IMG/VR virus record: IMGVR_UViG_3300045119_000359
Coordinates: 1 to 54,810 of that record
Direction: 5' to 3' (one strand)
DNA: 54,810 nt
Origin: a virus
Taxonomy: Duplodnaviria; Caudoviricetes
The position numbers and the translations under genes are program-made. The number at the start of each line of letters is the position of its first letter. The stretch's first letter is position 1. This document shows positions 592 to 36,386 of this stretch, in pieces. The notes beneath the pieces are model-generated. The model was not told where the DNA came from, searched no databases, and saw only the letters and a list, made by a program, of their open reading frames with translations.

Positions 592-603
592 GTATCTCTA
601 GCC

Positions 604-2453: not shown

Positions 2454-2933
2454 ATGCCGCTTCTCAACTACACCACGGAGGTAAGTGCCGAGCGATCGGT
2501 AGCGGAGATTCAGTCCAAGCTGGCCAAGGCCGGTGCATGGCAGATTCTCCATGAATACCAGCGCGGCACCGGAGAGTTGATCGGGCTGTCGTTTCAGATC
2601 GACACTCAGTTTGGCCCAATGGCGTTTCGCCTGCCTGCCAACATCGACGCGGTGGAGAAAGTCCTTATCCGGCAACGGGTACGTCGTCGGCCTGACCTCA
2701 AAGCCCGGGGTCAGGCCACTCGGGTAGCGTGGCGCATCCTCAAAGACTGGGTGGAAGCCCAGCTCGCCCTCATTGAAACCGAGCAGGTTAAAATGGAGCA
2801 GGTCTTTTTCGCCTTCGTGCAGGACAGCAAGGGACGGACACTCTACGAGGCGTATGAGGAGAAAAAGTTTGCTGGACTGTTGATGCCCGGCGAACGCAAA
2901 GTGGTTCACATGGAGGAATCGAAATGCTCGTAA
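2454..2933 (+). CDS. Conserved-looking phage hypothetical protein
   Basis: GGAG RBS; 159 aa; RVAWRILKDWVEAQLALIE motif. Confidence 0.8.
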   Translation: MPLLNYTTEVSAERSVAEIQSKLAKAGAWQILHEYQRGTGELIGLSFQIDTQFGPMAFRLPANIDAVEKVLIRQRVRRRPDLKARGQATRVAWRILKDWVEAQLALIETEQVKMEQVFFAFVQDSKGRTLYEAYEEKKFAGLLMPGERKVVHMEESKCS

Positions 2934-4636
2934 TCTACCCATTCAGCGTCGTTGACCAGGATCAGGCGCTCAAAAACGCGCTCTGGATCAAGGAACTCGG
3001 AGGAAGCGAGGCGCATGACATATTCATGCTGTCTGACAGGAGATGCGACCCGGAGATCTGTCGGCAGATCAGGGAAGCGTTCAAGGGCACATTCAAGCTT
3101 TTGCAGCACCGCATGACCAAGAACGACATTGATGGATGGCCGCAGGGCGCAAACCAGTTGTTCTGCTACTCCACCTGCCTCATCCAGAACGAGCGAGGAT
3201 GGCCGTATTTTCTCTGGCTTGAACCGGATGCCATTCCCATCCGCCCGGGTTGGCTGGACTCGCTGGAGGCAGAATACCGGCTCAAAGGCAAGCCGTTTAT
3301 GGGAGAGCGCGTTGACCTTGGAGAGAAAAGGCCGGACGTCCCGGTGCACATGAGCGGGGTCGCCATTTACCAGAACCCGATTTACCTGCTGGCCGGTGAA
3401 GCGTACCGCGCCCATGAAGTGGCCTGGGACATCGCCGCCAAAGACCAGATCCTGCCCAACGCGCACTTCACGAAACAGATTCAGCATTATTGGAAACACG
3501 GCACGTTCACCGACCTGAGCGGCATCAGGCCGGAAACCGTGATTTTTCATTCATCGAAGGACGGAAGTTTGATTGACTTGCTCCGCTCGCAACGCAATGG
3601 TGTGTCGCGGGATGGAGCAGCGGTAGCTCGCCACGCTCATAACGTGGAGGCCGTGGGTTCGATTCCCACTCCCGCGACCATCAAAAAACTCCCCCACGGT
3701 GTTTGGGTCATTGAAGGTGACACCATTATCAGCAAGCAGGTAGAAGACAGTGGACGCCTTGATTTTGATCTCCTCATTCCTCACATCCTCCAACACATCA
3801 GACCCGGTGATACCGTGGTTGATGTTGGTGCTTTTATTGGGGATCATACTATTGCGTATTCTCACGCGGTAGGGAAAGACGGCAAGGTCATTGCCTACGA
3901 ACCCAGCCTGTCTGCCTTCCACTGCCTTGTGCATAATGTGGAACGATGCGGAAATGTCTTTACCTTTAATCACGCCCTTGGCGCATCACCAGATGTGGTC
4001 AGAATGACCACTTCTGCCAACGCCGCCAGCAATTACATCGGCGGAGTTGAGGGCGATAACATCATTGTCCGGCCACTGGACGAGGACATCTCCATCTTTG
4101 AGCGGCTGGACTTAATCAAGATCGACACCGAAGGCTACGAGCTGAAAGTCCTCAAGGGAGCGGAGAAACTCATCGAGAAATTCCATCCCAAACTGGTGGT
4201 CGAGATAAATGAGATCGCCTTGAACCGGCAGCACGTTACTCCGGAGGACGTCATTGCTTGGATCGTGCGGAAGGGCTACCAGGTCAGCATCCTTCACCGA
4301 CATGGCCCTGACGTTCCCTTTTATGACATTTTGGCAGTCGCCAATCGGCCACCGGAGATTTCAAGTGACGTCGGGATTGCCCATACTGACGAATCGCCCG
4401 CCGTCGCGCCTCCGGTGGCTGCCCATCGGCATCCCACCATCAAGGAAGAAATCGCATGGCACGTTGAAGTGCTGAGAGCATTTTGTGAACACGACCCTCA
4501 AACAAAAGCTGCGGTCATGCAGAAGCTGGTGTATTCTGGTCTTAGACAACCTAACAAGAAAAAGAATGCCACTTCAAAAACTCATAAACAAACCAACGGG
4601 AAACGTAGGGCCGCTGCTGAAGAACGCCAAACCTGA
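2924..4636 (+). CDS. Fusion of glycosyltransferase-like domain and FkbM-family SAM methyltransferase
   Basis: N-terminal FLWLEPDAIP...HMSGVAIY...IFHSSKDGSL (GT-A-like); VVDVGAFIGDHT, VIAYEP and LIKIDTEGYELKVLKGA (FkbM). Confidence 0.85.
   Translation: MLVIYPFSVVDQDQALKNALWIKELGGSEAHDIFMLSDRRCDPEICRQIREAFKGTFKLLQHRMTKNDIDGWPQGANQLFCYSTCLIQNERGWPYFLWLEPDAIPIRPGWLDSLEAEYRLKGKPFMGERVDLGEKRPDVPVHMSGVAIYQNPIYLLAGEAYRAHEVAWDIAAKDQILPNAHFTKQIQHYWKHGTFTDLSGIRPETVIFHSSKDGSLIDLLRSQRNGVSRDGAAVARHAHNVEAVGSIPTPATIKKLPHGVWVIEGDTIISKQVEDSGRLDFDLLIPHILQHIRPGDTVVDVGAFIGDHTIAYSHAVGKDGKVIAYEPSLSAFHCLVHNVERCGNVFTFNHALGASPDVVRMTTSANAASNYIGGVEGDNIIVRPLDEDISIFERLDLIKIDTEGYELKVLKGAEKLIEKFHPKLVVEINEIALNRQHVTPEDVIAWIVRKGYQVSILHRHGPDVPFYDILAVANRPPEISSDVGIAHTDESPAVAPPVAAHRHPTIKEEIAWHVEVLRAFCEHDPQTKAAVMQKLVYSGLRQPNKKKNATSKTHKQTNGKRRAAAEERQT
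3606..3680 (+). tRNA. tRNA with CAT anticodon (Met, or Ile2), encoded CCA, located inside a CDS
   Basis: Acceptor CGCGGGA/TCCCGCG, D stem GAGC/GCTC, anticodon stem CCACG/CGTGG with loop CTCATAA, T stem GTGGG/CCCAC with loop TTCGATT, 3' ACCA. Confidence 0.92.
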
Positions 4637-5302: not shown

Positions 5303-6886
5303 TTATCCCGAAGTATAGACCGGCCTGTGCCCTTTTCCACGCTGCCCTTTTGGAGTAACGGTCGGCTGGTAGTAGTGCGTCCCGAGCATGGCGGGAATCA
5401 TCACCAGTACAGCTTTCCCGAATGACCGAAGGACTTTCTCGTTGAAATCCGCGGGAACCCCGGTGTCCTGCGACATCTCCTCGGCAAATTTATGGATGCC
5501 TTCCTCGGTGAAGATGGGGCCAAGTTCCGCTGTGACAAATTCCAGCCAGTGCGCTGTGTCAGCCGGTGCCTTTCCGAACGGTGCGGGAACATCAGTCCCA
5601 CCGAAACCGTAGCCTTTCATCAACGTGCCTACGAAGTTGATGAATGGATGAACCTTGCCCAGAGCGTAGTTTCCGAAGATGGTAGGAGCCTGTTTCGGGT
5701 GCATGCCCATTCTTATCAGAGTACGGATCATCGACGTCTCTCCGCCGGTCGGGTTCAGGATGCTGCCATCCGGCCCTTTGGCACTTCCCCAGTCCGGGGA
5801 ATCAAAATCACCAAGGTTGATCTTCTCATCGCTCCCGAAGAAATGCGTGAGCAGCAACTGGTTCAGCATCAGGAGCGAAGTTCCTGTCAGGGCTATGCGA
5901 ATCCATTGCCGTGTGTTGTAACCGGCCATGTAACGCGCTTCAGGGCTGGCGTCCCTCCACAGTTTCTGGAGCTGGTCTCCAACCACGGGCACCTTGTTCA
6001 GATTGTGCCGCGCCAGCGTGGTCATTGACTGCCCCAGGTCAACCGGACGCATCACGCGCCCCACATCAAGAGATGGCGCAAAGGAAACACCCCGGGCGAA
6101 TTCACCGAATTTTCCGGACAACGCCAGTGCCGCGCTGGGGCCGGGGGCACCTGTCATGTGGGCGACATTTACGGAAATTCTCTTGCGCAACTCATCCGTT
6201 CTCAGGTGCTCGGGCGCACCATCCCATGCGGCGTCCCAGGCCATGCTCCGGAGTTCCTTCAGGCCAAGGAAACTGTTTGAAAGCATCCTGCCGAGTTTGC
6301 CGAAGAACCCGCTGCGGTGCTGGATGTCGTCATAGATCTTGCGGGGATCAATGGGAAGGCCGCTTGTTACTTTCTCATCGAACCGTGGATCGAGCATGAT
6401 ACTCTGCGCAATCTGTCGGGCGTTGGATTCGCTCATGGAACGCCATGAATCAGCCCAGGTTTTTCCGTAGGCTTTCCACATCATCGGGTCGAAGGCATAC
6501 GGCCATGCGTGTGTTCCGTGCAACGCAGCCTGGTGCCCGACCACCTTCAGGGAATAGGGAGCCTGATAGAAACCCCGGAAGAACCTGTTGAGCGGCGATC
6601 GCTCCGTCCCTTCCACGAACGTACGCGCCTGCCGGAGCATCTGCGCCCTGTTCCTGTCGGCCAGCAGCAGGTTCTTGGTGCGGAGCCTCACCGATTTGGG
6701 AGTCGCCAGCAGGCGTGCCACCTCCTCCGGCACCATGCGGATGCCCTTCTGGGCGTAAATGTCGTCAGACAGCCTGTGCGTCAGCTCCTTGAAGTCCGGG
6801 TAACCGTAGCGACCGGGCTGCTTCAGATAGCGTTCCTTGGCGTAATCCCAAAGCTCCTTAGCCTCCTTGATGGTATAACAGGCCAT
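5303..6886 (-). CDS. Putative internal virion/ejection protein with hydrophobic segments
   Basis: TAATG-coupled to the giant ORF; hydrophobic helix IALTGTSLLMLNQLLL; position at the end of the ejectosome block. Confidence 0.7.
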   Translation of the reverse strand: MACYTIKEAKELWDYAKERYLKQPGRYGYPDFKELTHRLSDDIYAQKGIRMVPEEVARLLATPKSVRLRTKNLLLADRNRAQMLRQARTFVEGTERSPLNRFFRGFYQAPYSLKVVGHQAALHGTHAWPYAFDPMMWKAYGKTWADSWRSMSESNARQIAQSIMLDPRFDEKVTSGLPIDPRKIYDDIQHRSGFFGKLGRMLSNSFLGLKELRSMAWDAAWDGAPEHLRTDELRKRISVNVAHMTGAPGPSAALALSGKFGEFARGVSFAPSLDVGRVMRPVDLGQSMTTLARHNLNKVPVVGDQLQKLWRDASPEARYMAGYNTRQWIRIALTGTSLLMLNQLLLTHFFGSDEKINLGDFDSPDWGSAKGPDGSILNPTGGETSMIRTLIRMGMHPKQAPTIFGNYALGKVHPFINFVGTLMKGYGFGGTDVPAPFGKAPADTAHWLEFVTAELGPIFTEEGIHKFAEEMSQDTGVPADFNEKVLRSFGKAVLVMIPAMLGTHYYQPTVTPKGQRGKGHRPVYTSG

Positions 6887-9800
6887 TAGCCGCAGACCTC
6901 CCTTAGTTTGGTGACCCAATCCAGCGTTGCTGGCCCTTCACGGTCAGTCCTGATGCGCTTAAATTCGTTGTCCATGGTATTGTAAACGTCAGCATTGGAC
7001 TTCATGTAGTCAGTCTGGGTCTCTTTTGTCTTCTGAGCAATCCTGCGGGCTGCGCCTTCCTCGGTCACCATGGGATCCCTGCCGCGAATCTCCCTGAACC
7101 GCCGCATTAGCCCGGTGTAGGATGTGGCGGATGCCGGATCTAGCGGCGCGTAGCCATTGAGCACCGGCAGCGTCTCCCTGGCCACTGCATCCATTGGCCG
7201 GTAGGCATTGGAAAATTTCTCCTCGACATTCAATGCTTCGTTGAACCTTTTCAGGAGACCTTCATCCTTCGGGTGCTTGGTCAGCGCGTCACCAACCTGA
7301 TTGGTAATCGACTGGAGATCGTTCAGGTGCGCCCGGGCTATTCCCATGGACGAAGTGGTGACCTTTCCGGTTCTCTGGAAATCCCTGACCACCTGATTGG
7401 GATCACCGCCTTTGGCCAGCCAGTCCTTCCCCTTGGTCAGAGCTTCATCCCATCCAATGGGTTCCCGGGGTTTCTGGTCTTCTACTGTCCGAACGGGTTC
7501 TTCATCGTGCCCGTAATGCCGGGCGGCTTCGGCAGCTCCGGTAGCTGCGTCTTCGTTGCTGGCGGTGCCTTCAAGGATGTCACCGAGGGATCCAGCCTGC
7601 TGATCTGTCTCTCCAGCTCGTTCAGCGCCGGTTGGTCTTTGTCTTTGAAACCTGACATCTCCCTGTGCATAGAACGAAGATACACGCTTGCGAGGAACTT
7701 CTGTTTCGTCGGGTCGTTCGGGGCCAAGGGCCGCACTAGACTTAAAGCTCTCGGCACGATTTTTCGTATTGTAATCCTGGAGTCTTTCATTGATCTGGTT
7801 GAAGGTATCCCAATGTTCAGCATAGATGTTTCTGAGGGCTTGTAAAAACTTTTCCTGTGGCACGCCCTTGGCTACCCTTCGCGCCTCGTTAGTCCCTTCC
7901 TCCGTGGTAAACGGCTCACCCTCGGTGCGTTTGGCAACATGGGTGATTTCGTGGTTGAACAGGTAAAAGGTTTCCGCTGCTGCTGCCTCTGGGCTGGTTC
8001 TGGCATAATGCGACAGAGCACCGGGGTTGACCCAGATGGCCTTGAAAGGACTGACCGTGTTGAGACCACGATAGCTCTTGTCGTAGGAAACACCGCCGAA
8101 CCATCCGGTGTGATCGGTCTTGGCGAGGTCAGCGTATTTCTCGCCAACCGCCTTCCCGAATTCCCGCATGTACTTGATGAGCGCGTTCCCGATCTTGGTT
8201 TCAAACTCCGCCGCCCCGGGTATGTCATCGAACTTGGCGTCGGTGTTATTGTGCAGATACGGCTTGGTAGGATCGAGGTGGCTTACGTCCAGCTTGGTCT
8301 TTTCAAAATCGACTTCCCTTTCCGGCTTGAAAGAAGGCTTGATGTACTGCTCAGGCGTGGTCTCGGTTGATTCACCGCCGGTGTAATGCGTTACGATCCT
8401 GTCCTTGCCAATATCTACGCTGGTCACCTTCCTTGGAGTGTATGGCGCGATCTCCCGCTGGGATTTGGCGGCGGCATTGATCCTGTCCACCTGCTCTTTA
8501 GTCAGGCTCTTGGTAGGATCAATGTCAGGAAGCTGCTTGATGGTCTTGAACACATCCTGTGCCTCAAGTAACTGCTGCTCGACAGCCTGGTTCTTGAAGT
8601 ACTGGTACATGGAATCCACATCTTTCTTGATGGTGGATCGGAATCCCTCCCGCTGGTTGTTAAAGGGATAAGCCGGGTTGTCGCCTCTTACATTGGGCCT
8701 GACGTCCAGCGCGAAATTGTAGGGGATCTTGGCCTCCCCGTAGCCGTAAACATCATTGCCATAAATGTCGAACTGATGCAGCCCGGCTGAAAGGACGTTG
8801 AACTTCGGGTAGTCGGTCTTGAATTTCGGATCGACGTAAACGTTGATCTTACCCCATGAGAAATTGAAGGTGTTATCCTTCTGCCAGTCCTTCTGGTGAA
8901 CCCCGAGAGGAAGCGTTTCCCCGTTCTTAACCACCTCGACAGGTGCCAGCAGTGGCTTGTCCAGAAAGGCCGGGTACTTGTGAAAATCAATGGCATGCGT
9001 TTCGCCATTGTTGTCAATGTAGCTCTTGGGTATCTTCACGGTGACCGTTGTGCCGTTAGGCTCATTGGTCTGTTCCTTCAGGATTTTAATAGTGGCCTTC
9101 GATCCTTCCTCAAGTGTCTGGGCTATCTCGTCGCTGCTGACATCTACGGTGGATTTCAGTTTGTCTTTGACTGTTTCCAGTCTGATTCGCTCCGACCCGA
9201 GCTGGAATGCCATCTTTGCCGCGCCCAGGCCGCCGGAGGTGTTTTCCGGAGAGCCAGTCTTTTTGGTTCCACCGATCGTGAAGAACGCCTTGCGCACTGT
9301 CTCCGGGGTCATGCCGATTCCGGTGTCCTTTACGGTGATCGTCCTTTTGTCGGCATCGTAATCTATGTGGATTGTCTTGGGATTTTTCGCCGTCGAACCG
9401 GCTTCACGCGAAGCATCGAGGGCGTTTTGCAGCAGCTCCTTGGTGGTCACCTCCAGTATCGGCTTTTCGTACATCGACTTTCCGAGTAGCTGGACGATCT
9501 GCCTCTTGTTCATCCCCATCTGGATTTGATCTTCACCACTGGAGGAATGAATGAGCGTGCTCCCCTTGTCGGCAGCCGCCGCAAGATCCATGTCGAGTTG
9601 CTCCGGAGACTTCTCATACCCCGGGGCAGAGGATTTCATTGGAAGCTCAGATCCCGGGAGGTCAGGCCCGAACTCGCCCTCATGGGTGAGTGCCACCAGA
9701 TCGGGATGCATCGGCCAGTTCTGCCACCGTGCCAGTTCAGCCTTCAACTGTTCGATCTTCCTTTGAACCGCCACCGGGTCTTTGACATCCACTCCCAGAC

Positions 9801-12800
9801 GCGCTGCCAGCTTTGGGTTTCTGGCCGCGCCCTGTACCGCGGAAATCTGCTGCCGAAGGCCGCGCTGGATCTTCATGGCGCGAGCTGCCTGCTTCTCCAT
9901 CTGTCGCATGGCGGCGTCATCGAACCTGAACAGGTCTCCTGTCTCTGGATGCTCGGCGGCGCGACCCAGTGCCGCCTTCACCAGATTGGCTGCGAAATTG
10001 GCGGGCTTCCCTTCAAGGGATGACCTGATTCCTACCTGCTGCGCACCGGGGTTGCTCGGCGCTGCCTCCGCTATCTCCTGAGCCGCACTGTCGGTAATCC
10101 TGCCCGACTGGTGTAGCGCAAAAAGGTCTTCGCTGCCGTCTCGCGCAATTTGGAATCCGGCTTGGCCTTTTGCTCTCGCCAGAAGTCCTCTGGATTCGGC
10201 ATCTGCTTGGCTGAGTTCCGAGTGTTTGAAGTAGTTTGCATAATCTCCTACGCTCCCTTTCTCGTCTCTGATGTTTAGCTCGGCGTCAAGCCGCGCTGCT
10301 GCTGTCGCATCGAATCCATCAGACTCACGATGGATCTGCGATGGAATAGTGTCCTCTCCAGTTCGACGCGCCAGATCGAAGCGATGACGACCGGAAATCA
10401 GCTCCAGGTCGCCATTGTTACGCTGCCAGAGTTGAACCGGTGCTGTGCCTGTGCGCTCATATTTTCCGGCCAGCGGCTCAACAACTCCGCGCTCATTTGC
10501 ACCGGCCTTGAACTGCGGGACGTCTTTGGACAGGGTGATATTGTCCAGCGGGATCTCCATGGTAGGCTTGCCGGTAACCTGCGTGGTGGTTTCCGGAGGA
10601 GGACGCCGCGTTGGTGGCAATGGCAGCGGAAATACATCGCCACCAGCTTGCTGCTGTTGCTGCTGTTGTGGCTGCGCAAGCGCGTGAAGCGCGTTCTTAG
10701 GGACTTTAGGCGGCGGTTCCGGTGGAGGAAGCTCTCTCGTCTTTTCTGCGCTCGTTTTCGACGTCACTCTGGAGGTAGGCACGCTCCTCGTCGGAGATGG
10801 GATACTCGGGCCACCAGTTGAGGTCGTCGATGGCTCCGATTCCGGAGTTTGTGTCGATGTCGTCTCCGCTGGTTTCTCGGTTTCCGGAGTTACCGTCTGG
10901 GCCGGTGTTTCGTCCGTCCATCCCTTGAGTCGCTTCAGCTCCAAATCCGCTGCTTCGATCTCCTGCTTGCTCGCCTTCCATTCAGGCAGTTTACCAGTCC
11001 TCCGTGCTTTTACAATATCGGATACAGCACTCGCGGCGATGTCCGTGGCGTCACCTTCCGCCTTGTCAATCCGGCGCGGCTTCTTCTCCCCAGGAAGGGC
11101 TTCCCTGATGTCTCCGCCAACATAAACGCCCGGCATACTGGTCTTCAGGCTGGCATCCTGTGGAATTACCGGCCCCGGGATTGGGTTACCCTTTCGGTCG
11201 AAAGTCGGTCTTCTGGCAATTCCTTCCGGCATCCATCCGGTGTTCAGGCCAGTGGACAGGAAGTTTTCCAGATGCGCCACAGGAATGTCCACCACTTCTC
11301 CGGTAAGTTTCGATTTCCCATTGGCATCTGTTACTCTTTTCGCCACCTGCACAGTAACTCCACCAGTGGATGGATCTGGTGTTATTTTCTTGACCTCACC
11401 CTGCACAAACTCAACCCGGCCTTGTTTCTCGTAGGCTCTGAGCCTTTCCATTTGATCCGCGCTTGTCTCAGGGCCGAATGGACTTCGGGACAATGCGACG
11501 ACCTTTTTGGTTCCTTCCCGAAGTGCTCCAATGATTGCCTGAGTAGCACTGTTACCTGCGCCATTGGTCATCCCCACCTTTCCAGTAGAAAGGCGACTAA
11601 ACCGTTCGGCGTTTCCCCATCCGGAATGCTCAAATCCTGGTAGTTCTACTATCTTTGATCCGGTCAGGATGCCTACCCGCATGGCAGGTATTACTCCGTG
11701 GTGTTTTGTAATGATGTCCACTCCGCCGTCTGGTCGTGGCTTCAGATTAACCACCTCAACTCCTGTGCGAATCTCTGCTCCTCGATTTCGGGCTGTCAGG
11801 TAACGTGGACGAAAATAATCCCTGCCGGTAGTCCCTTCACCGGATGCCCCGGTGTTGATAATCTCCAGTGACCTCTTGGATTGGCCTCCGGTGCTTGTTT
11901 CCCTCTCCACTACAACAGTGTCAACGCCCTCGTAGGCAGCTTGAGCGGCAGCTTTTAATCCGCCTGCTCCTCCACCGATGATAACAAATTCCCGGGGCTT
12001 TCCTGATTCGTTGCGAATCTTATGTATGGCATCCCATGTGTTCCATAGGTCGGTCAGCACGCGGTCGTGCTCTATCGCAATGGTGCGCCGGTCTTCGCGT
12101 GCCTGTCGGGATTCACCCACCGGCTTCTTTTGTTTCAGGATATTGCCTGCCTGATTTCTCAGGTCGGCTGTCCGGGCCAGAAGCTCAGTAAGCCTTGGAT
12201 CATCCGATACCTGCTGGCCGGGTACGGCTGCGTCTGCCTTTCTTTTCGCCAGTTCCTGCGTGTATGCCATCCCTACAGGCGGCGCATTGGGATCGGCGTT
12301 CTGTGACTTGATGTACTCCTCAAGTTGAGGAGTGGTCATCTTGACTGGATCGGTTGTTACCGGCAGTCCACCAGGTTCCTGTTCCGGCTCAGTGGGTGTT
12401 TTAACAACCTCCTTCGCTGCCGCTGCCGCGTTCTGGAGAAAGTCGGAATCCAGCGTTGCTTTACTGGCAGTGGCCTCCTCGATCGTGTCAGTCAGATCTC
12501 CTACAGTGGCCGTGGGATTTCGTTCATCCACGACGGCGTATTGCTCGCCTCGTTTCTCGATGACGAACGGAGTCTCTCCCAGTGGCGACCCCTTGCCGTA
12601 TCCACCGGTTGCCGCGTACATCTCCTCGGCTCTCTTTACTTCTCCAGCCCGGGATGACTCAGGTGACGGCTCTAGTTCGGGCGGCGGTTCTTCACCGGAA
12701 ATGATTTTCCTGAGATGGGCTATCTCGTCCACCCTCTCCTGAATTTTCTCCTTTGGTATTCCATCTATTTTCGACAGAATGTTAATCTCGTTCTGTGCTT

Positions 12801-13650
12801 CCCCGATACGCCGCTGGAAACCCTCCATTTGATTTGGAGCTATCTGGACTGGCGGCTTGTCGATCGGCATGGCTTCAGTGCCCGGAGCTGGTATCGGTGC
12901 ACCGGGTAGTGGCTGTTCAACTCTTGCCGTTTCGGACACCACGCCGGGTGGAGAAAACTGCTCGGGCTTAAACGCTCCTGGCACTGGCGGGATTGCCGCG
13001 CCGGGTCGCGGCACTGCTCTTACGCCCGCAGGAAGAAACGGTTTCGCCATGGTGATCCCCATGATTGCATTGGCTACATCGCCTCCTACTGTCTCGACCT
13101 GCTCTGCAAGAGGCTTCTGACCAAAATTCTCGTAGCGGTAAGCCTCTGGATACATCTCCCTGTTGACCTGTTCCATCGGCTCGCCCTGAGCCAGTTTGTT
13201 TATGGCCTGACCGCTTTTGATAACTTCCTCGACTCCACCAACGACCGGGGTGGCAAACTCCGCCGCTCCACGCCATGATGTCGGCACAAAACCTGCCAGC
13301 ACCCTTCTCATGCCTTCGGCCACCTGATTTGCTTCCGGAGTGTTACGCCATAGATACTTGCCGGGATCTTGGGAAAACGGAGTTTCGGTTGTTCCGTAGA
13401 GCGACCGCGCCCTCTGGTTTACTTGAGCAAGGTATCCGGCTGCGCTGCCAAGTGCCTGATCCGTGGCTGGCTGGCTTGGAGGCGGTGTGGACGACTGAGC
13501 CGGAGCGGGTGTGCTTACCAGCTTTCCCCCAAGATCCGATAAATCAGAACCACCGCCACCGGGCGAAGGTGTGTTTACCGGAGTAGCTCCAAGATCGGAT
13601 AGATCAAGGGACGATGACGAGTCCTGGGTCACGTTGCTTGGCTTGGTCAA
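6886..13650 (-). CDS. Giant polyvalent virion protein: TrxB-like flavoprotein, ParB-like, GHKL ATPase and HExxH domains
   Basis: VIIGGGAGG/VVVERE/GAGNSA/TSMPGVYVGGDIR; LISGRHRFDLARR; KELLQNALDA/DTGIGMT/GGLGAAK/GTTV; NHEITH. The start codon is uncertain. Confidence 0.85.
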   Translation of the reverse strand: MTKPSNVTQDSSSSLDLSDLGATPVNTPSPGGGGSDLSDLGGKLVSTPAPAQSSTPPPSQPATDQALGSAAGYLAQVNQRARSLYGTTETPFSQDPGKYLWRNTPEANQVAEGMRRVLAGFVPTSWRGAAEFATPVVGGVEEVIKSGQAINKLAQGEPMEQVNREMYPEAYRYENFGQKPLAEQVETVGGDVANAIMGITMAKPFLPAGVRAVPRPGAAIPPVPGAFKPEQFSPPGVVSETARVEQPLPGAPIPAPGTEAMPIDKPPVQIAPNQMEGFQRRIGEAQNEINILSKIDGIPKEKIQERVDEIAHLRKIISGEEPPPELEPSPESSRAGEVKRAEEMYAATGGYGKGSPLGETPFVIEKRGEQYAVVDERNPTATVGDLTDTIEEATASKATLDSDFLQNAAAAAKEVVKTPTEPEQEPGGLPVTTDPVKMTTPQLEEYIKSQNADPNAPPVGMAYTQELAKRKADAAVPGQQVSDDPRLTELLARTADLRNQAGNILKQKKPVGESRQAREDRRTIAIEHDRVLTDLWNTWDAIHKIRNESGKPREFVIIGGGAGGLKAAAQAAYEGVDTVVVERETSTGGQSKRSLEIINTGASGEGTTGRDYFRPRYLTARNRGAEIRTGVEVVNLKPRPDGGVDIITKHHGVIPAMRVGILTGSKIVELPGFEHSGWGNAERFSRLSTGKVGMTNGAGNSATQAIIGALREGTKKVVALSRSPFGPETSADQMERLRAYEKQGRVEFVQGEVKKITPDPSTGGVTVQVAKRVTDANGKSKLTGEVVDIPVAHLENFLSTGLNTGWMPEGIARRPTFDRKGNPIPGPVIPQDASLKTSMPGVYVGGDIREALPGEKKPRRIDKAEGDATDIAASAVSDIVKARRTGKLPEWKASKQEIEAADLELKRLKGWTDETPAQTVTPETEKPAETTSTQTPESEPSTTSTGGPSIPSPTRSVPTSRVTSKTSAEKTRELPPPEPPPKVPKNALHALAQPQQQQQQQAGGDVFPLPLPPTRRPPPETTTQVTGKPTMEIPLDNITLSKDVPQFKAGANERGVVEPLAGKYERTGTAPVQLWQRNNGDLELISGRHRFDLARRTGEDTIPSQIHRESDGFDATAAARLDAELNIRDEKGSVGDYANYFKHSELSQADAESRGLLARAKGQAGFQIARDGSEDLFALHQSGRITDSAAQEIAEAAPSNPGAQQVGIRSSLEGKPANFAANLVKAALGRAAEHPETGDLFRFDDAAMRQMEKQAARAMKIQRGLRQQISAVQGAARNPKLAARLGVDVKDPVAVQRKIEQLKAELARWQNWPMHPDLVALTHEGEFGPDLPGSELPMKSSAPGYEKSPEQLDMDLAAAADKGSTLIHSSSGEDQIQMGMNKRQIVQLLGKSMYEKPILEVTTKELLQNALDASREAGSTAKNPKTIHIDYDADKRTITVKDTGIGMTPETVRKAFFTIGGTKKTGSPENTSGGLGAAKMAFQLGSERIRLETVKDKLKSTVDVSSDEIAQTLEEGSKATIKILKEQTNEPNGTTVTVKIPKSYIDNNGETHAIDFHKYPAFLDKPLLAPVEVVKNGETLPLGVHQKDWQKDNTFNFSWGKINVYVDPKFKTDYPKFNVLSAGLHQFDIYGNDVYGYGEAKIPYNFALDVRPNVRGDNPAYPFNNQREGFRSTIKKDVDSMYQYFKNQAVEQQLLEAQDVFKTIKQLPDIDPTKSLTKEQVDRINAAAKSQREIAPYTPRKVTSVDIGKDRIVTHYTGGESTETTPEQYIKPSFKPEREVDFEKTKLDVSHLDPTKPYLHNNTDAKFDDIPGAAEFETKIGNALIKYMREFGKAVGEKYADLAKTDHTGWFGGVSYDKSYRGLNTVSPFKAIWVNPGALSHYARTSPEAAAAETFYLFNHEITHVAKRTEGEPFTTEEGTNEARRVAKGVPQEKFLQALRNIYAEHWDTFNQINERLQDYNTKNRAESFKSSAALGPERPDETEVPRKRVSSFYAQGDVRFQRQRPTGAERAGETDQQAGSLGDILEGTASNEDAATGAAEAARHYGHDEEPVRTVEDQKPREPIGWDEALTKGKDWLAKGGDPNQVVRDFQRTGKVTTSSMGIARAHLNDLQSITNQVGDALTKHPKDEGLLKRFNEALNVEEKFSNAYRPMDAVARETLPVLNGYAPLDPASATSYTGLMRRFREIRGRDPMVTEEGAARRIAQKTKETQTDYMKSNADVYNTMDNEFKRIRTDREGPATLDWVTKLREVCG

Positions 13651-15657: not shown

Positions 15658-17064
15658 TTATCTCGTCATGTAGTTGGAAACGTCACCCAAACCAAAGCCG
15701 TAAGTCTGTATGTGGATGGTGCGCCGGATCCCACCCAGATAAGCCTGGAGTTCCTTGTCCAGAATGTCGATGGCCGCAGCCCCGTTGAGCTGGGCGTTCT
15801 GCACATCCTTGGCTTCCTCCTGGAATTTCGCCATTGTCATCAGGCGGATGGCTTCGTAATTCTTGATGGTCATCATGTCCCCGGGCTGCTTCTGCACCCA
15901 GCGTAGCTTACAGACCGCCGTGATGCACGATCCATCCTGGCAGGGAGCGACCAGTTTGTATTTCCTCCTAGGCATTTCAAACCCGGGCTGCTTGTGATCG
16001 CCTTCGTCAATCAACATCGCGCTTTGCGGGTTCATCCCAGGCCCGTTATCGAGATGCTGGAAATACTGGCTGCGGATCGGGATCGGTGCCCCGTTGAGGT
16101 CAATGGCGTGAACCGCTCCCACGGCCTGCGGAAAGTAGATGTGACCGCCAACCACATTGGCTGTTATGGTAACCACGGTGTCTTTCCATGAGCCGCGCTC
16201 CATCAGTCGGCGCTCGGCCTGATTGATTGTCCATGTGAGGTCGAACTTTGAAACCCGGAGACCTTCCGGTACGTCGAGCGCAATCTGGGCGCGTGTCCAG
16301 CCCAGTGTGCCCTGAGCGAAGTTCACCAGGTCATCTCGGTATGCGGCCTTCCGGAACATATAGTTCCGTGGGTCGAAGATGTGCTTCTTCACCTCGGCCT
16401 GAAGCAGATCCATTCCTTCCTTTCGGTACGCCTGCGCCTGCTCGACGGCGTTGTTCTCGTAACGCTCGATCGACAGGATGATGCATTTCAGGGCTTCGAT
16501 GTTCTGCACGATGAGGTAGTCGTCGTCATTGGTCACCGGCAGGTAACGCTTCGCTCCCGTCGCCTGCACCACGCCGTTGGAAGGCTCTAACCCGGGGTAG
16601 AAATACACCCGACGAACATCCTGCGGATCGGCAGGATTCCCATTCAGCCCAAAGTCCAGAAGCGGATTATCCATCGCCATGCTGGGATCCATGTAGGCCG
16701 ACTGGTTGATGATCTCGTACCAGCCTCCGGTGGTGTCGCGGTTTCCGAACGCCTTGACGTCACCGACCGGGTGCACCTCGATGATGTTCTCCATCTGCGG
16801 AGGAAGGAACAGAAACCGGCTCTGGGCTGTTATGTTGGTGACCATCATGCCGCCGACCGGTATCATGTTGTCCAGCACGATCTTGGTAGCTTCGTTGAGG
16901 CGCACCAGCACACGCGGGTCATCCGCACACACGCCGTTGTCCACGACCCCGCAAATCATCGGGGCTGCGTCCCGGAATTGCAGGCCGCCCTGCAACGGCA
17001 AAGTTTCGCCCGGTTGCGGCGGAGGAGGAAACCCGACATCAATACTGGAAGGTGTGTCGATCAT
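15658..17064 (-). CDS. Putative head-tail adaptor/tail tubular protein with two tandem homologous domains
   Basis: RLNEATKIVL...AKRYLPV...IVQNIEALKCII mirrors INQAERRLM...KLRWVQK...TIKNYEAIRLMT. Confidence 0.6.
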   Translation of the reverse strand: MIDTPSSIDVGFPPPPQPGETLPLQGGLQFRDAAPMICGVVDNGVCADDPRVLVRLNEATKIVLDNMIPVGGMMVTNITAQSRFLFLPPQMENIIEVHPVGDVKAFGNRDTTGGWYEIINQSAYMDPSMAMDNPLLDFGLNGNPADPQDVRRVYFYPGLEPSNGVVQATGAKRYLPVTNDDDYLIVQNIEALKCIILSIERYENNAVEQAQAYRKEGMDLLQAEVKKHIFDPRNYMFRKAAYRDDLVNFAQGTLGWTRAQIALDVPEGLRVSKFDLTWTINQAERRLMERGSWKDTVVTITANVVGGHIYFPQAVGAVHAIDLNGAPIPIRSQYFQHLDNGPGMNPQSAMLIDEGDHKQPGFEMPRRKYKLVAPCQDGSCITAVCKLRWVQKQPGDMMTIKNYEAIRLMTMAKFQEEAKDVQNAQLNGAAAIDILDKELQAYLGGIRRTIHIQTYGFGLGDVSNYMTR

Positions 17065-17065
17065 G

Positions 17066-17881
17066 TTAGTACCCCACGAAGATGATCCATCCAAGGGCGA
17101 TGAATGGGTTGATAATGCTGACCGGATCAGGCGTGGCGTTGCCGTCATCGCCAGCGTAAATCAGCCTGTTCTCGGTGTTGCTGGGATCAGGAGGAGACCC
17201 TGGCCCGCTTATCAGGTGCGGGTCACCAAACATCTGACCGGTGTCGCTTCTAGCGTTCCCGCTGGCAAACCACCGGCCTGACCACAGTTCCGGTCTGGCT
17301 TTCTGGTAGGTGTTGTCGGCAGTGGAGGTGAAATCAATCGCGCCACCGGTGGCCTTTGCCGCCTTTTTGTCTATCCAGCTCACCCACTCTCCGTCCTCAT
17401 AGTCGTTCTTGCTGTCGGTCTTGTTCATGTGCGCCCCGAGGAGGAACTTGTCCGACAAATCCGGAGTGCCATCCTTACCGTTGCAGATGTGCCAGCCGTC
17501 ATACTCCAGACCGGAGTTCCCCATCCCATTGGTGTTGAACAGGGCAGGAGCAGGGCCGTAGCCCGGTGCACCATGGTAAGCCCTGATCTCTCCAAGCATC
17601 CCGTTGTACACCCTGCGCCACGCACCATTGGGGCCGCTTCCCTGCCAGAACACCTTGATGGCAATCGGGCGTCCCTGGCTGTCTAGCTGAAACCACACCT
17701 TGTCTTGGTCATCGACATCCGGAGTGCCGTTCTTAACCACGTAAGGAAGGTAGCTTCCCACGATCTCGGAATGCACCAGAGAGTTGGCCAAGGTAAAGAG
17801 CTGAGTCAGGTTCAGTGGTGCCGCTCCGGGCAATGGCATCGAAAATTCGGTATGAACCGGAGGATTTATATTGTTAGGCAT
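17066..17881 (-). CDS. Tail protein with tail-collar-like domain
   Basis: GEIRAYHG...GWHICNGKDGTPDLSDKFLLGA...NPFIALGWII. Confidence 0.75.
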   Translation of the reverse strand: MPNNINPPVHTEFSMPLPGAAPLNLTQLFTLANSLVHSEIVGSYLPYVVKNGTPDVDDQDKVWFQLDSQGRPIAIKVFWQGSGPNGAWRRVYNGMLGEIRAYHGAPGYGPAPALFNTNGMGNSGLEYDGWHICNGKDGTPDLSDKFLLGAHMNKTDSKNDYEDGEWVSWIDKKAAKATGGAIDFTSTADNTYQKARPELWSGRWFASGNARSDTGQMFGDPHLISGPGSPPDPSNTENRLIYAGDDGNATPDPVSIINPFIALGWIIFVGY

Positions 17882-17882
17882 G

Positions 17883-18197
17883 TTAAGTTTTTGAGGTTGA
17901 TTTCTCTATAATTATCATGGCGTGCAGCCGAAACCGGTCGAGTACCACATGGCCGCTCCCGCTGAATTTCACCTGAAATGCAAATCCCCGGCGCAGGCTT
18001 CTCTTGGTGGTGCCATCGCAGGAGTTCTGAGGTTTACCCATTGAGACCCGTGGAGCAAACCCGGGCTTTGCGGTAGGATTACCACCGGCGTCAATCTCCC
18101 CAGGGTCACCGATCATGTCGAATTTCTGGGTGAATTCACGCCATGGCACCCAGTATGGGAAATTGTCTGGTCGGTATTCAACTTTCAGCGTGTGCAT
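17883..18197 (-). CDS. C-terminal fragment of split tail tubular protein
   Basis: VEYRPDNFPYW...RRGFAFQVKFSGSGH beta-rich end; TAATG-coupled to the endonuclease. Confidence 0.7.
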   Translation of the reverse strand: MHTLKVEYRPDNFPYWVPWREFTQKFDMIGDPGEIDAGGNPTAKPGFAPRVSMGKPQNSCDGTTKRSLRRGFAFQVKFSGSGHVVLDRFRLHAMIIIEKSTSKT

Positions 18198-18496
18198 TAC
18201 TCAATATACCTCCGGCACTTCTCCATGAACTCCTTGTCCTCGACTACTGAAACCTTCCAGTTACAATTTTGGCACAGTAAACCCCTGACCCTTCCGGTGT
18301 CGTGATGATGGTCAGCCGCAAGACTGTAACGGAGTTCTGATTGATGTTTCCCACATAGGGCGCAGCTCCCGTTTTGGAACGCAAAAAGGATCACATAATC
18401 ATCCCGCGTGAACTGAGTTCCGTTACGGTTCTTAATGCCATACTTCTTCCAGTTGTGCTGTCTTTGCTTCCTGCCAGTTCTGTCCCTGATTTTCAT
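18197..18496 (-). mobile_element. Endonuclease VII-like homing endonuclease inserted in the tail gene
   Basis: KYGI...CALC...LAADHHHDTGRVRGLLCQNCN; ATG 2 nt after the upstream TAG. Confidence 0.88.
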
Positions 18497-18498
18497 TT

Positions 18499-20169
18499 CT
18501 ACTCGATGATCTCCCTTAGCCACAGGTCGGCGTCGTAAAGCTCGTTCTCGGTGAAAGGCGTTGACTGCTGGGACAGCTTCTGGAAATCGAAGCTCCTGCT
18601 GACCATTTCCCATTGAATGCGCTGGCCGTCCCAGTCGTCCTTGTCGTCAACCGATAACTCAAAAAGCTGATTCTGATGCGTGCCATCACTAACCGGTACA
18701 ACCGCGAACATAAAAGCCCGCGTAATCCCGTTAAATGTTCCCGTGAGCAGTTGTGTTGGCAAAATGGACTTCTCCACCCACCAAAAACCTTCCCATGCTG
18801 GCTTGGTTGCTTCCGGTGCCTGAACCGAACCGCCGAACGAGCTGATGATGTCAAAATCAACCGCCACCAGTCCCCAGTGAAGCGGCCTGCCCTGGTTCCA
18901 CATCGGAGAGGTGGTGCATATGATCCGGTTATCGAAATAGATCGCGGAACAAAACTTCAGGAGGAACTCGCTGTCGTTTTCAAGGTATTGCCTCACCGGG
19001 GTTGAAAGAGGAATGTGCGCCCACCCGGTAGGCTCGCTGCGGGCCTGACGGTAGGAGCGCACGCCGTCATCGCTTCTGAACCAGAGGTCTTCGTTCACCA
19101 CCGCTATGGATCGGTGGCCACGCAGCCCGGTGGTCAGCATTGAAAGGATCTGGAAGGCGCTGGTTTTCCACTGCTCGCGTGGGATCGAAAGAAAGAAGTT
19201 GGTTGCTCCGCGCTCGGCAAACACAATGAGCTGCCCGTTTCCGGTGGAAGTGTCCTGCTGCGGAAAGAACATCATTCCGGTAACGATGCCCTGCGTGAAT
19301 GGAATGGCGGCATCCTGACCTTCAGCCAGAAAATTGCGCTCAGTGAAAAGGACGAGCGAGTCAGCCGGATCTGGAAGGTCGTGGCTTCCAATAAGGTCGC
19401 CAAAGGCAACGTCCCGGTCGTTGACGGTCACCACGATGCGTCCCATGCCATACGCCATGATTGTTCCAACGGGAATTTCTGTTTCATCCGGAAGACCGCT
19501 GGTTTTGGATCTCCTGGCCTTCGATCCATCGTAGATGATGGGCGCACTGATGCCGTCCTGAGCGATCAGCCATTTGTCGGCCTGAAGCATGTAGCCAAGC
19601 GGCATCCGCTTCATGTTCCGGAGATTCCTTGGCTCGTCCTCAATGATGATCTCCCTGACCTTGGCGGTACTTATACCCGGTATGATCTTAAAGAGACGAC
19701 CTCCAACGAGAGCCATAATGCAGTCTTCGCCATTGTGCGGAGAGTAAGCCTGGGCGCACTGAAAGATACCGTTCCTGTAGATGTATTCGGAATTCTCATT
19801 GGTAAGGTGGGTGTCCATCCGGTAATACGGCGGGTTTGGCAGAGTTGTGTACCAGTGCGCGTTGTCTTTCGGGTTCACATACTCGCCACCGATCTTGTCC
19901 ACCGATCCAACCTGGTAGGGAGCGTTGTAACACCAGACCTGTTTCTCAGGGTGAGGCACATGATGGATGTCATCAGGATCCACGATGAGTGGGAACGACT
20001 CGTCCAGTTTCCTGACGCCCGGGCGAGTGGCTGGACTGCCTCCACGGAAAGTCAGATTTATGGCGCTCTGCACCTGATTGATGTCAATAGTGTCCGGCTC
20101 ACGACCGGCATCTACGCCACCTTCCAGTGACAGCCATCCGTCGAACACTCTGTTTTTGTCAGCAATCAT
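18499..20169 (-). CDS. Tail tubular/nozzle (stabilisation) protein, N-terminal part
   Basis: Beta-rich 556 aa; SAINLTFRGGSPATRPG, NEDLWFRSDDGVRS; position in the tail block. Confidence 0.75.
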   Translation of the reverse strand: MIADKNRVFDGWLSLEGGVDAGREPDTIDINQVQSAINLTFRGGSPATRPGVRKLDESFPLIVDPDDIHHVPHPEKQVWCYNAPYQVGSVDKIGGEYVNPKDNAHWYTTLPNPPYYRMDTHLTNENSEYIYRNGIFQCAQAYSPHNGEDCIMALVGGRLFKIIPGISTAKVREIIIEDEPRNLRNMKRMPLGYMLQADKWLIAQDGISAPIIYDGSKARRSKTSGLPDETEIPVGTIMAYGMGRIVVTVNDRDVAFGDLIGSHDLPDPADSLVLFTERNFLAEGQDAAIPFTQGIVTGMMFFPQQDTSTGNGQLIVFAERGATNFFLSIPREQWKTSAFQILSMLTTGLRGHRSIAVVNEDLWFRSDDGVRSYRQARSEPTGWAHIPLSTPVRQYLENDSEFLLKFCSAIYFDNRIICTTSPMWNQGRPLHWGLVAVDFDIISSFGGSVQAPEATKPAWEGFWWVEKSILPTQLLTGTFNGITRAFMFAVVPVSDGTHQNQLFELSVDDKDDWDGQRIQWEMVSRSFDFQKLSQQSTPFTENELYDADLWLREIIE

Positions 20170-22013
20170 ACCGGTAGCGTGTGCGGTGTTCCCCGATTGA
20201 TGTTTGCCGATCGGCCACTTACCCGTGGAGCCATCAATGATGGATTGGCCCTGAGTATGTTACCGAGATTCACCTGACCCTGGTGGAATTGCTGGAATGT
20301 TTGACCTGGTGCCACGCTGGTTGCTCCGGAAAACGGACTTGGAGACTGCGCTCTGTTCATGCCATAAATTCCTGCTGGAGTGTAAAGCCCCTTGTACATC
20401 TTCCGCAGGTAACTCTGATTCATGGCGTTACCCATTGATGTGCCACCCAGATTCACAGGCCCGCTTCCACCGAGATTGTAAAACGCGCCTGCTACGGAAG
20501 TCGCGCCATGTGGCTGACCTGCGCTTGCACCGCCATGGAAATAACTGCCGGAATTTATTGCTCCGTACGCACCCGTGTCAGCCGCGCCAACGGTCGGCCC
20601 TGATACTCCGCCGGGAATAGATTCACCGGTGTTCATTTCGGTGTAACCAAGCGAGGCCAGATAATCCGGAGTCGTGTTCCTCGGATCGTTCATTATGTTG
20701 TCGATGAAATCCCTGCCCAGATTACCGGCTCCTTTGGCCAGATCGCCAAGAGTTCCCATCACCTTCCCGGCGGCATCGACAATATTGCCAGCCGCGTCCC
20801 TGAACAGTTGTCCGGCGTGCGACCAGTCAGTTGGGGCATTCAACTGAGCCAGTAACCCGGGCTGGATAGGAGTCAGTCCCTGCCTGTTGTAAATGTTGGC
20901 CTCATCCTGCGGGCTGAGTGCTGTTCCGGCTATCGGATTGCCTTCCGTGTCGAGCTGTCCCGGTTGTCCGGTGGCAAAAACGGGACTGCCTCGCAGCTCA
21001 GTGAACGGATTGGCCGGAAGATCCTCCGGCGTCACGCCGGGAGGCGTCGGCAGATTGCCCGGATCGTTCGGGTATGGAGTATTTAGAGGGCCGCCGCTCC
21101 AGTCGATGTTGGCCTGTCCTCCCCAGATGTCCGTCGCTCCAGGCGCTACCGCAGGAGGCGCGGTCAGATCCTCACCGGGGTAATTTGTAGCGCCATAATC
21201 AGGAGCTTGTTGAAGGTTTTGCCAGTCGATCGGTACGGCATCCGCACTGAAAATGTCAGGTGTTGGCTGGTAATCCTGATAGGTGTCCACCGGAGTCGGC
21301 GTCATTGCCTCGTTAGGTGCTGGGTTGTTGGGAAACATCTGGTCGTAGATCCCGGCGTACGGGTTCGATGGCGGGTTCGGAGCGTTGACATCAAAATGCA
21401 CGGTGTCGTCCCACGGATTCGGAGCGATTCCGGAAGGCTGACCGTACGGGTTGACCGGCAAATCCTGAAACGGGCCAAATGTTCCAGGTGGAACATCCAT
21501 GGCCTCATGCGGGTAATTGCCGCCCGCCGCGTTCACTGGAATTGGACTCGGCTCAATGCTGGGATCTGAGAAATCCATGCTCGGCCTGTTGGGGTTCGGG
21601 AGGTTCTGCTGTGGCCCTCCGAGCAGTCCTTCCTTGAACAGTCGAGAAGCGAAACGATTGTAGATGTCCTGCTCGTCCTGTCCCCACCGCGCCCTTTCAA
21701 AATTATTGTAGATCGGTGGATCGGCGGTGATGCGACCGAACGTCCCCGGGTTATCAACCTGCGGAACAGGCTGCGGAGTTCCAACCGGAATCGGCCTCGG
21801 TGCCGGGAAGGAAGGATCATCCAGCCAGACATTCGGCTCTGTGGTTGACCGATAGATATTCGGGTTGGGAGACAACTGATTCGGATCCAGCGGCCTACCA
21901 GACACGAAAGGATCTATTCCCTGACGAAAATGAGGATAGCTGCCAGCAACGGGGCTGCTGTCACCTCCACCGTTGTAGAGCTGCATCAAATATCTGAACT
22001 GGTCTTCGTTCAT
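20166..22013 (-). CDS. Pro/Asn/Gly-rich, likely disordered virion-associated protein
   Basis: Long ORF coupled on both sides by ATGA overlaps. Confidence 0.7.
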   Translation of the reverse strand: MNEDQFRYLMQLYNGGGDSSPVAGSYPHFRQGIDPFVSGRPLDPNQLSPNPNIYRSTTEPNVWLDDPSFPAPRPIPVGTPQPVPQVDNPGTFGRITADPPIYNNFERARWGQDEQDIYNRFASRLFKEGLLGGPQQNLPNPNRPSMDFSDPSIEPSPIPVNAAGGNYPHEAMDVPPGTFGPFQDLPVNPYGQPSGIAPNPWDDTVHFDVNAPNPPSNPYAGIYDQMFPNNPAPNEAMTPTPVDTYQDYQPTPDIFSADAVPIDWQNLQQAPDYGATNYPGEDLTAPPAVAPGATDIWGGQANIDWSGGPLNTPYPNDPGNLPTPPGVTPEDLPANPFTELRGSPVFATGQPGQLDTEGNPIAGTALSPQDEANIYNRQGLTPIQPGLLAQLNAPTDWSHAGQLFRDAAGNIVDAAGKVMGTLGDLAKGAGNLGRDFIDNIMNDPRNTTPDYLASLGYTEMNTGESIPGGVSGPTVGAADTGAYGAINSGSYFHGGASAGQPHGATSVAGAFYNLGGSGPVNLGGTSMGNAMNQSYLRKMYKGLYTPAGIYGMNRAQSPSPFSGATSVAPGQTFQQFHQGQVNLGNILRANPSLMAPRVSGRSANINRGTPHTLPV

Positions 22014-36295: not shown

Positions 36296-36386
36296 CGTAG
36301 TGATTGTCGTGGTTTCCGCCAAGAAAGATGGCCAGCCCGATAGCCGCTAACAAGGCCAGCAGGGAAGCAATGAAAAGGATCTTCAT
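36288..36386 (-). CDS. 32-aa single-TM peptide
   Basis: MKILFIASLLALLAAIGLAIFLGG; TGATG overlap with the upstream gene. Confidence 0.5.
   Translation of the reverse strand: MKILFIASLLALLAAIGLAIFLGGNHDNHYDD

Follow-up and report, generated by a model that had tools for sequence, protein, structure and literature searches.

A putative homing endonuclease gene of the endonuclease VII family in the spacer between two apparently already separate phage nozzle genes

Results

The A-E-B locus

The virus record IMGVR_UViG_3300045119_000359 (Duplodnaviria; Caudoviricetes), a complete metagenome-derived sequence of 54,810 bp, was analysed over its whole length and is referred to below as the window. 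Both the listing of open reading frames (ORFs) and direct reading of the sequence place three ORFs end to end on the minus strand: a large gene A, a small endonuclease VII (EndoVII)-motif ORF named E, and a small gene B (Table 1). A preliminary description of this DNA had taken A and B for a single tail gene split in two by the endonuclease ORF. The best explanation overall, which we hold to be very probably correct, is that a free-standing EndoVII-motif homing endonuclease gene sits in the spacer of nozzle genes that were already separate.

Table 1. Genes and junctions of the A-E-B locus (positions in the window)
Feature	Position	Strand	Description
Gene A	18499..20169	-	Codons 18502-20169, 556 aa, ends ...DADLWLREIIE; TAG stop 18499-18501; large nozzle/tail-hub-like chain, N-terminal part and beta-propeller
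Gene E	18197..18496	-	ATG 18496 to 18200, 99 aa, ends ...RRYIE; TAA stop 18197-18199; free-standing endonuclease VII-motif ORF
Gene B	17883..18197	-	Codons 17886-18197, 104 aa and stop, begins MHTLKVEYRPDNFPYW; small C-terminal nozzle/hub chain
Left junction	18497..18507	-	End of A, ATCGAGTAG, and 2 nt (AA), then the ATG of E
Right junction	18195..18216	-	Last codons of E (R-R-Y-I-E), TAA, overlapping the ATG of B

The layout given earlier, in which the TAG of A is followed by 2 nucleotides (nt), the endonuclease ORF and a TAATG-coupled B, was confirmed on the minus strand. The TAA of E shares its last A with the first base of the ATG of B, and 297 of the 301 nt from the stop of A to the start of B are codons of E, so that only 4 are non-coding. 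A GGAGG lies 11 nt upstream of the ATG of B, and a GGGAG is found at the same distance in the E-free relative L002. Upstream of the ATG of E there is only a weak GAG, at 6-8 nt. E could also be read from an ATG at 18613, giving 138 amino acids (aa) and an overlap of 115 nt with A, which is less likely than the 99-aa reading.

The octamer AT(C/T)GAGTA had been noted at both junctions and is indeed there, at 18500-18507 and 18198-18205, but as a bare repeat it does not go beyond chance: the window contains 3 copies against 1.36 expected, and at least 3 were reached in 11 of 100 shuffles. Seven other direct repeats of at least 10 nt occur within the same 900 nt. The octamer appears at both junctions because proteins A and E have the same final I-E-stop, a conserved ending in the family of each; the consensus of A ends in ...WLRxIxE, and in the EndoVII family the invariant Y97 is followed by [IL]-[EK]. 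A target-site duplication was considered for the octamer and rejected in view of the chance-level count, the conservation of Y-[IL]-[EK] as a nuclease end, and the nearest E-less junction, which reads TAG-CC-ATG and not TAATG.

An Rfam search of 17300-20600 gave no match at E≤1. With 4 non-coding nt between A and B, this leaves no place for an intron core, and E is an intact ORF between stop codons, with its own ATG and without intein blocks. The earlier statement that neither an intron nor an intein is present thus stands. RNA of the A/E junction folds no better than shuffled sequences (z +1.70), with no hairpin over the start of E. A further proposal was that A and B become one chain again across E, through translational bypass or through splicing of RNA or protein. 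Such a proposal can draw on the contiguity of A and B in fused relatives and on the similar octamers at the two junctions, and on nothing further. The null Rfam result, the unremarkable RNA fold, the intact ORF lacking intein blocks and the chance-level octamer all speak against it. Moreover, relatives without an insert carry A and B as separate ORFs in different frames, so that a single chain is not required. We regard rejoining as effectively refuted already and give it almost no chance of being correct.

The A/B junction in relatives

The database contained 319 homologues of A, and the C-terminal ends were examined for 120 of them. Among these 120 listed proteins, 119 reach the C-terminal end of A, 93 stop within 2 residues of its last residue, 21 carry an extension of 6-75 residues and 5 an extension of at least 100 residues. 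Four of the last group (P0057, P0071, P0078 and P0085) have B fused in frame, and the fifth, P0021, has a Cys-rich repeat.

Forty related loci (12 viral contigs and 28 metagenome contigs) were then compared. Five of them (L019, L032 and L039-L041) end before the junction, leaving 35 informative loci in which both the end of A and B are visible; four pairs among the 35 have identical A proteins, so that at least 31 are distinct. B directly follows A, fused or separate, in all 35. At 20 loci, the stop of A is followed by the start of B within -4 to +4 nt (TAATG, TAAATG, ATGA, GTGA, TGATG, TAAGAAATG and similar), several of them in another frame. At 4 loci, A has a short or long C-terminal extension before a coupled B. 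A and B are fused in one ORF at 9 loci, and extra coding DNA lies between them at the remaining 2 (L029 and L036). No EndoVII match was detected by tblastn at E≤1e-3 in any of the 35 informative loci.

In the joint alignment, the last column of A is 888 and the first of B is 895, and the linker of the fused forms occupies at most 6 columns. In fused forms such as L009 and L011, a Met directly precedes the B part at the position of the first Met of B. The B alignment contains 27 invariant columns in 21 sequences. The claim that homologues would show A and B to be contiguous is therefore right in part: they form one chain at 9 of the 35 loci, and at 24 they are separate ORFs with nothing in between. 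The claim that the endonuclease split the gene was not borne out, since those 24 relatives already have a stop and a coupled start at this point without any insert. Endonuclease-free homologues that also encode two genes were the very observation that the preliminary description had set against its own proposal, and they make up these 24 loci.

A tree of A proteins (36 rows; IQ-TREE quick mode, LG+G4) was rooted at the midpoint, so that the data themselves do not determine the root. The window is grouped with L029 at a Shimodaira-Hasegawa-like approximate likelihood ratio test (SH-aLRT) support of 99, and this pair nests in a clade of 14 rows (SH-aLRT 96), in which the other 12 are without exception split and have no insert. 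The fused forms branch off deepest at the midpoint root and are found only in more distant lineages. A history of the Aeh1 nrdA-mobE type, which the preliminary description had invoked, goes with an uninterrupted gene in close relatives that lack the endonuclease; here, 12 of the 12 insert-free rows of the window's own clade are split. The insert-free split relatives, together with the nesting of the window in a split clade, argue that the split is older than E and that E entered a gene pair that was already divided. Splicing or bypass is not needed if the split predates E. The single-chain structural outgroups described below favour the fused form as the ancestral state.

The boundary between A and B has received other additions. 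L036 (1120-2496) carries a 211-aa Gly-rich repeat extension of A and an extra 246-aa ORF at the boundary; the ORF has no PHROG match at E≤1, and the extension likewise has no convincing PHROG match. In P0021, P0116 and P0117, A has C-terminal extensions of Cys-rich 'GACC...PNPC' repeats, and in P0138 and P0139 B is preceded, within the same protein, by a parallel beta-helix (PF12708) or a proline-rich module. The A|B boundary thus seems to be a point at which the nozzle tolerates insertions.

Such a recurrent insertion point, occupied by E in the window, a remnant in L029, the 246-aa ORF in L036, the modules of P0138/P0139 and the extensions of P0021/P0116/P0117, could also be taken to mean that the split itself is a scar of earlier endonuclease invasions that were later lost near-precisely, with the window and L029 as survivors or re-invasions. 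Gene-splitting insertions of mobE and mobA are documented in PMC2988022. However, none of the 24 insert-free split loci retains a remnant, and their junctions of -4 to +4 nt, or overlaps after an extension of A, would require repeated near-perfect deletions. An EndoVII match is missing from all 5 complete relatives, and other inserts at the site are not nucleases, as illustrated by the L036 ORF. A simpler route to fission, a point mutation to a stop next to an internal Met already in place, is favoured by the alignment of the first Met of B with such a Met in fused forms, L009 and L011 among them. We consider the scar explanation quite unlikely, and retain the reading in which E arrived after an independent split.

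A and B as nozzle/tail-hub-like chains

Neither A nor B matched a Pfam or PHROG family at E≤0.01, and tblastn of both against 50,697 GenBank phage records returned no match. The fold was modelled with AlphaFold2 on a natural fused relative, P0071 (625 aa, 57% identical to A), and not on the window's own chains; separate A and B proteins were among the 47 rows of the alignment. The model had a mean predicted local distance difference test (pLDDT) of 67.7 and a predicted template modelling score (pTM) of 0.72. Foldseek returned Pa223 first (E 3.7e-11), followed by P22 gp10, Pan3, VP1, Sf6 gp8, T7 gp12 and Pam1, and these nozzle/hub matches had probabilities of 0.97-1.00 and E-values of 4e-11 to 1e-6.

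In a second structural comparison, with VIA-align, the best 27 of 50 rows were single-chain podophage nozzle, hub or muzzle proteins (Z 12.6-15.9). The top match, 9nwi_Y, had Z 15.9 and a root mean square deviation (rmsd) of 4.1 over 415 aligned residues, and P22 gp10 (8eap_D) had Z 14.4 and rmsd 4.9 over 409. The nozzle matches span model residues ~6-618 and nearly the whole target, whereas unrelated beta-propellers reached Z≤12.3 and covered model residues ~36-466 only. Because the span of the nozzle matches takes in the B part (model residues 520-623), the model places the B part within the nozzle fold. On this model, A and B together would be a podovirus-type nozzle/tail-hub protein in two chains. 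The earlier assignment to a tail gene is upheld, as the fold of the fused relative matches podophage nozzle/tail-hub proteins.

The likeness to the podophage nozzles (P22 gp10, Sf6 gp8 and T7 gp12; Pa223, VP1, Pam1 and the phicrAss001 muzzle) extends over nearly the whole length of the P0071 fold, and the A/B gene also lies in a late structural block. The differences are that the sequence identity is only 6-12%, with A and B lacking any Pfam or PHROG match, and that the solved nozzles are single chains, while in the window and most relatives a gene of its own encodes the last ~104 residues.

A complex of A and B was predicted from alignments of their own, of 29 rows for A and 21 rows for B. 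The score was 0.85, and the best of three controls scored 0.00. The mark set for this score was reached by 116 of 157 solved complexes and by 2 of 215 mismatched pairs, counts that hold only roughly for alignments of this kind. Three runs agreed in at least 97% of contacts, with partner pLDDT of at least 73, and paired B residues 69-97 with A residues 517-529 and 538-556 and with the N-terminal residues 4-15 and 45-48 of A. The prediction supports binding between A and B. Two outcomes had been offered for the divided protein, assembly from two chains or rejoining; with the complex model supporting binding, two-chain assembly is the likely state, and bypass or splicing is both unneeded and unsupported.

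Two observations touch on crAss-like phages. A 68-aa protein of the window at 36386-36592 (-) matches the Pfam family crAss001_48 (E 7e-21), and the chains that the nozzle model resembles in structure include the phicrAss001 muzzle protein (Z 14.6). Together, these two matches hint at a distant link between this soil phage group and crAss-like tail architecture.

The endonuclease ORF

E matched the Pfam profile PF02945 with 61.5 bits (cut-off 23.6, E 7.3e-17), residues 27-98 aligning with positions 8-80 of the 82 in the profile; a six-frame genome search with the same profile gave 61.6 bits. E also matched PHROG 2914 (E 3e-20). In PMC6083498, a CX2-4C / D-H-(D)-H / R / CX2C / N motif is defined for T4 EndoVII and F-CphI. 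This motif is complete in E, comprising C45-x2-C48, D62-H63-H64-H65, R71, C75-x2-C78 and N79. In an alignment of 15 sequences, C45, C48, D62, H63, H65, R71, C75 and N79 were invariant, and C78 was at least 90% conserved. E is thus a credible nuclease of the His-Me finger type with an EndoVII motif.

The motif occupies residues 45-79 of 99, and E ends 20 residues later. The same source distinguishes an 'endonuclease clade' with a C-terminal motif from a 'resolvase clade' in which an N-terminal motif is followed by a dimerisation domain. By motif position, in its C-terminal part, E agrees with the 'endonuclease clade'. The short N-terminal part of E is presumed from the sequence to bind DNA. The closest known system by protein type is F-CphI of cyanophage S-PM2, a member of the proposed 'DHHRN' family in PMC6083498, which is likewise a small free-standing phage protein with the same motif in the C-terminal part. 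The likeness rests on the common Pfam family and motif, and E differs in having no intron context. According to that source, F-CphI-type proteins have been proposed or demonstrated to be homing endonucleases.

The guanine plus cytosine (G+C) content of E is 48.1%, compared with 55.9% for the genome, which puts it in the lowest 2.4% of 300-nt windows. The closest relative of E in a database of 5.8 billion clusters is 47% identical. None of the 5 relatives that are 99-100% complete has a PF02945 match. The intact motif, the low G+C content and the patchy presence lead us to read E as a selfish element, most likely a putative free-standing homing endonuclease, for which we infer nuclease activity, a target site and homing.

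E might instead be a working phage enzyme, such as a Holliday-junction resolvase or a packaging nuclease, that is merely encoded in the tail operon. The EndoVII family does include resolvases, podoviruses without endonuclease I may use an EndoVII-type resolvase (PMC6083498), and this genome, with a second PF02945 ORF at 37233-37547, seems to retain such genes. However, the family is absent from all five complete relatives, the nuclease core is deleted in the closest relative, L029, and an E-less allele co-occurs with the window. The C-terminal motif and the length of 99 aa are also unlike the 'resolvase clade', which has its motif at the N-terminus according to PMC6083498, and the G+C content of E is atypical. 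A working phage enzyme is therefore very unlikely in our view, and we keep to the homing endonuclease.

Elsewhere in the window, the second EndoVII ORF at 37233-37547 (-) encodes 104 aa, matches PF02945 with 69 bits and is absent from the 5 complete relatives. On either side of it, at 37094-37246 (-) and 37537-37680 (-), lies a diverged copy of the 5' portion of a small gene (peptide ...KKNWI-GAVNPKH-GYC...). Over ~60 nt, the two copies share ~75% of their DNA bases, with differences mostly at wobble positions, and the upstream copy is truncated where the nuclease ORF begins. The 50-aa gene beside this ORF was not found in the 5 relatives. From its sequence, 37233-37547 looks like a homing endonuclease insertion with a partial duplication of its target.

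Alleles of the site

The closest relative, L029, is a metagenome contig of 2252 bp, with identities of 97% for A (compared over the last 267 residues) and 94% for B. It has the same TAG stop of A, followed by 143 nt up to the ATG of B that encode a 45-aa ORF (L029:807-949). Like E, this ORF starts a few bases after the TAG, and it ends in R-R-Y-I-E-stop, the last five codons of E; the 12 nt before ATYGARTAA are identical in the two ORFs. The entire nuclease core is missing from it, and no PHROG was matched at E≤1. Because Y97 is an invariant column of EndoVII, the end of the L029 ORF can be read as an EndoVII relic, and the ORF is probably a decayed EndoVII copy. We regard the shared ends of the L029 insert and E as the only solid evidence for this.

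Contigs of four soil runs were compared with 17300-19400 at 88% likeness; one of the runs, X1, is the likely source of the window. In run X2, a contig of 732 nt covers 18179-18910, including all of E, with 0 differences, and in run X3 a contig of 276 nt covers 18286-18561, also with 0 differences. Considering that the window is a metagenome-assembled virus record, the insertion could in principle be an assembly chimera. However, contigs from two runs, both belonging to other studies, match the window across the A/E junction with 0 differences, and one of them spans all of E, so that a chimera is next to impossible in our judgement.

Run X3 also contains a contig of 77 nt with an empty site: after the end of A (3 differences in 63) come CC and the first eight bases of B. 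In run X1, a contig of 3444 nt with twice the depth has 662 bases from the end of A to the gene after B, compared with 977 in the window, 315 fewer. A G>C change at 18530 is common to this contig and to the 77-nt contig of X3. The two observations, from short contigs, are weak but concordant in suggesting that E-less relatives co-occur with the E-bearing phage.

Genomic surroundings

The neighbourhood is a long minus-strand late block that encodes collagen-like and other fibre-like proteins, a 2254-aa protein and an amidase endolysin; two neighbours of 619 and 496 aa had no Pfam or PHROG match. A promoter scan of 16900-20400 found 3 promoter-like sites, with 2.0 expected; none of the 3 is on the minus strand. 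A terminator scan of the same region found one minus-strand terminator-like site inside A, and the counts were at the level of shuffled sequences.

The 2254-aa ORF of the late block (6886-13650, -) has a pyridine-nucleotide/flavin adenine dinucleotide oxidoreductase-like region at ~555-866 and a GHKL ATPase-like region at ~1400-1545, an unusual pairing for a presumed virion or ejected protein. Two genes at the left genome end, at 547-1809 (+) and 2924-4636 (+), encode an N6/N4 DNA methylase (E 2e-40) and a FkbM-type methyltransferase domain in a 570-aa protein.

Discussion

The results suggest the following course of events. In a large clade of soil phages, the nozzle protein would have been divided at a domain boundary by a stop codon and an overlapping or adjacent start. 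The E gene would later have invaded the tiny spacer between the separate A and B, giving one translationally coupled string of three ORFs. E would probably be translated by re-initiation after the stop of A, and B, with its Shine-Dalgarno-like GGAGG retained at the usual distance, would still be made separately from A, as in the E-free relatives. The two chains would associate non-covalently, B adding beta-strands to a sheet built from the N- and C-terminal segments of A. When phages co-infect a cell, E would most likely spread by cleaving alleles that lack it, into which recombinational repair then copies it, the intronless homing of free-standing endonucleases described in PMC2988022, and it would decay once targets run out.

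The closest precedent is seg43(25), located in the divided DNA polymerase gene (43A/43B) of Aeromonas phage 25. As PMC2988022 describes it, this free-standing homing endonuclease gene also lies between two ORFs that are one gene elsewhere, and the related phage 44RR is split at the same place without an endonuclease. The nuclease of phage 25 is of the GIY-YIG type, with an enzyme as the product of its host gene, whereas E has an EndoVII motif and its host gene specifies a virion nozzle protein. The prior split of gene 43 rests on one relative, whereas that of the nozzle gene rests on 24 insert-free relatives and a tree, all from sequence alone. The present case is the same kind of event as seg43(25), with another nuclease family and a structural host gene. 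Also comparable are mobE in nrdA of Aeh1 and mobA between T4 genes 60 and 39, in which, according to PMC2988022, a free-standing endonuclease ORF lies between the gene halves with neither an intron nor an intein, and the products of the two halves, as is thought or has been shown, come together again as separate chains. In those two cases, however, the insertion is held to have caused the split, as the gene is contiguous in related phages, while the nearest E-free relatives of the window are already split; in addition, mobE and mobA belong to the HNH family (PMC2988022) and E to the EndoVII family. In a literature search, judged by titles and the beginnings of abstracts, no nuclease insertion of this kind in a nozzle protein was found.

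Several points weigh against the explanation preferred here. The 47% identity of its nearest relative gives no sign that E has recently spread to other sites or genomes. None of the other 14 aligned sequences is as short as E, which has a short N-terminal part and stops at Y-I-E, where the others run 2-20 residues further; for these reasons, E may be inactive. The last third of the L029 ORF is colinear with codons 10-20 of E, as an in-frame deletion would produce, but the score lacks significance, being reached by 62 of 500 shuffles, and the match of the 45-aa ORF to the N-termini of longer EndoVII proteins is weak (phmmer E 0.055, in a set of 17 sequences). The case for E-less alleles is weak, consisting of one contig of 77 nt at a depth of 3.5 and one joint at 88% likeness. 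A joint at that likeness can stem from another organism, which is read here as a related phage. The three runs with E are soil metagenomes of one year and could hold one phage population. As for the nozzle, the high score of the A-B complex may come from the likeness to solved single-chain nozzles. A clade of 5 fused rows is nested among split forms, which implies at least two changes between fused and split, and the polarity from fused to split depends on the midpoint root and the structural outgroups.

A broader proposal is that the domain boundary of the nozzle is a recurrent landing site for mobile DNA, that invasion and loss drove the fission throughout the clade, and that E has made itself hard to lose. 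We think this unlikely. If it were true, translation of B would depend on coupling to the stop of E, so that only precise excision would keep the virion viable; the nozzle junction would be a plug-in point for accessory modules, such as the beta-helix enzyme, the Cys-rich repeats and the extra ORFs; and a full homing cycle of intact, decayed and empty alleles at this junction would be legible in metagenomes.

On the preferred reading, in which the EndoVII-motif gene entered nozzle genes that were already separate, the locus would be a clean natural example of a free-standing homing endonuclease in an already-split structural gene. The intact, decayed and empty alleles, all in close relatives among soil phages, would be useful for studying the homing cycle outside the T4-like phages. 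Every solved podophage that was matched has the nozzle/tail-hub protein as one chain; in a large uncultured clade, it would consist of two polypeptides. The tolerance of the split point to insertions suggests a site for nozzle engineering or decoration. More generally, an ORF found between two halves of a gene need not have caused the split.

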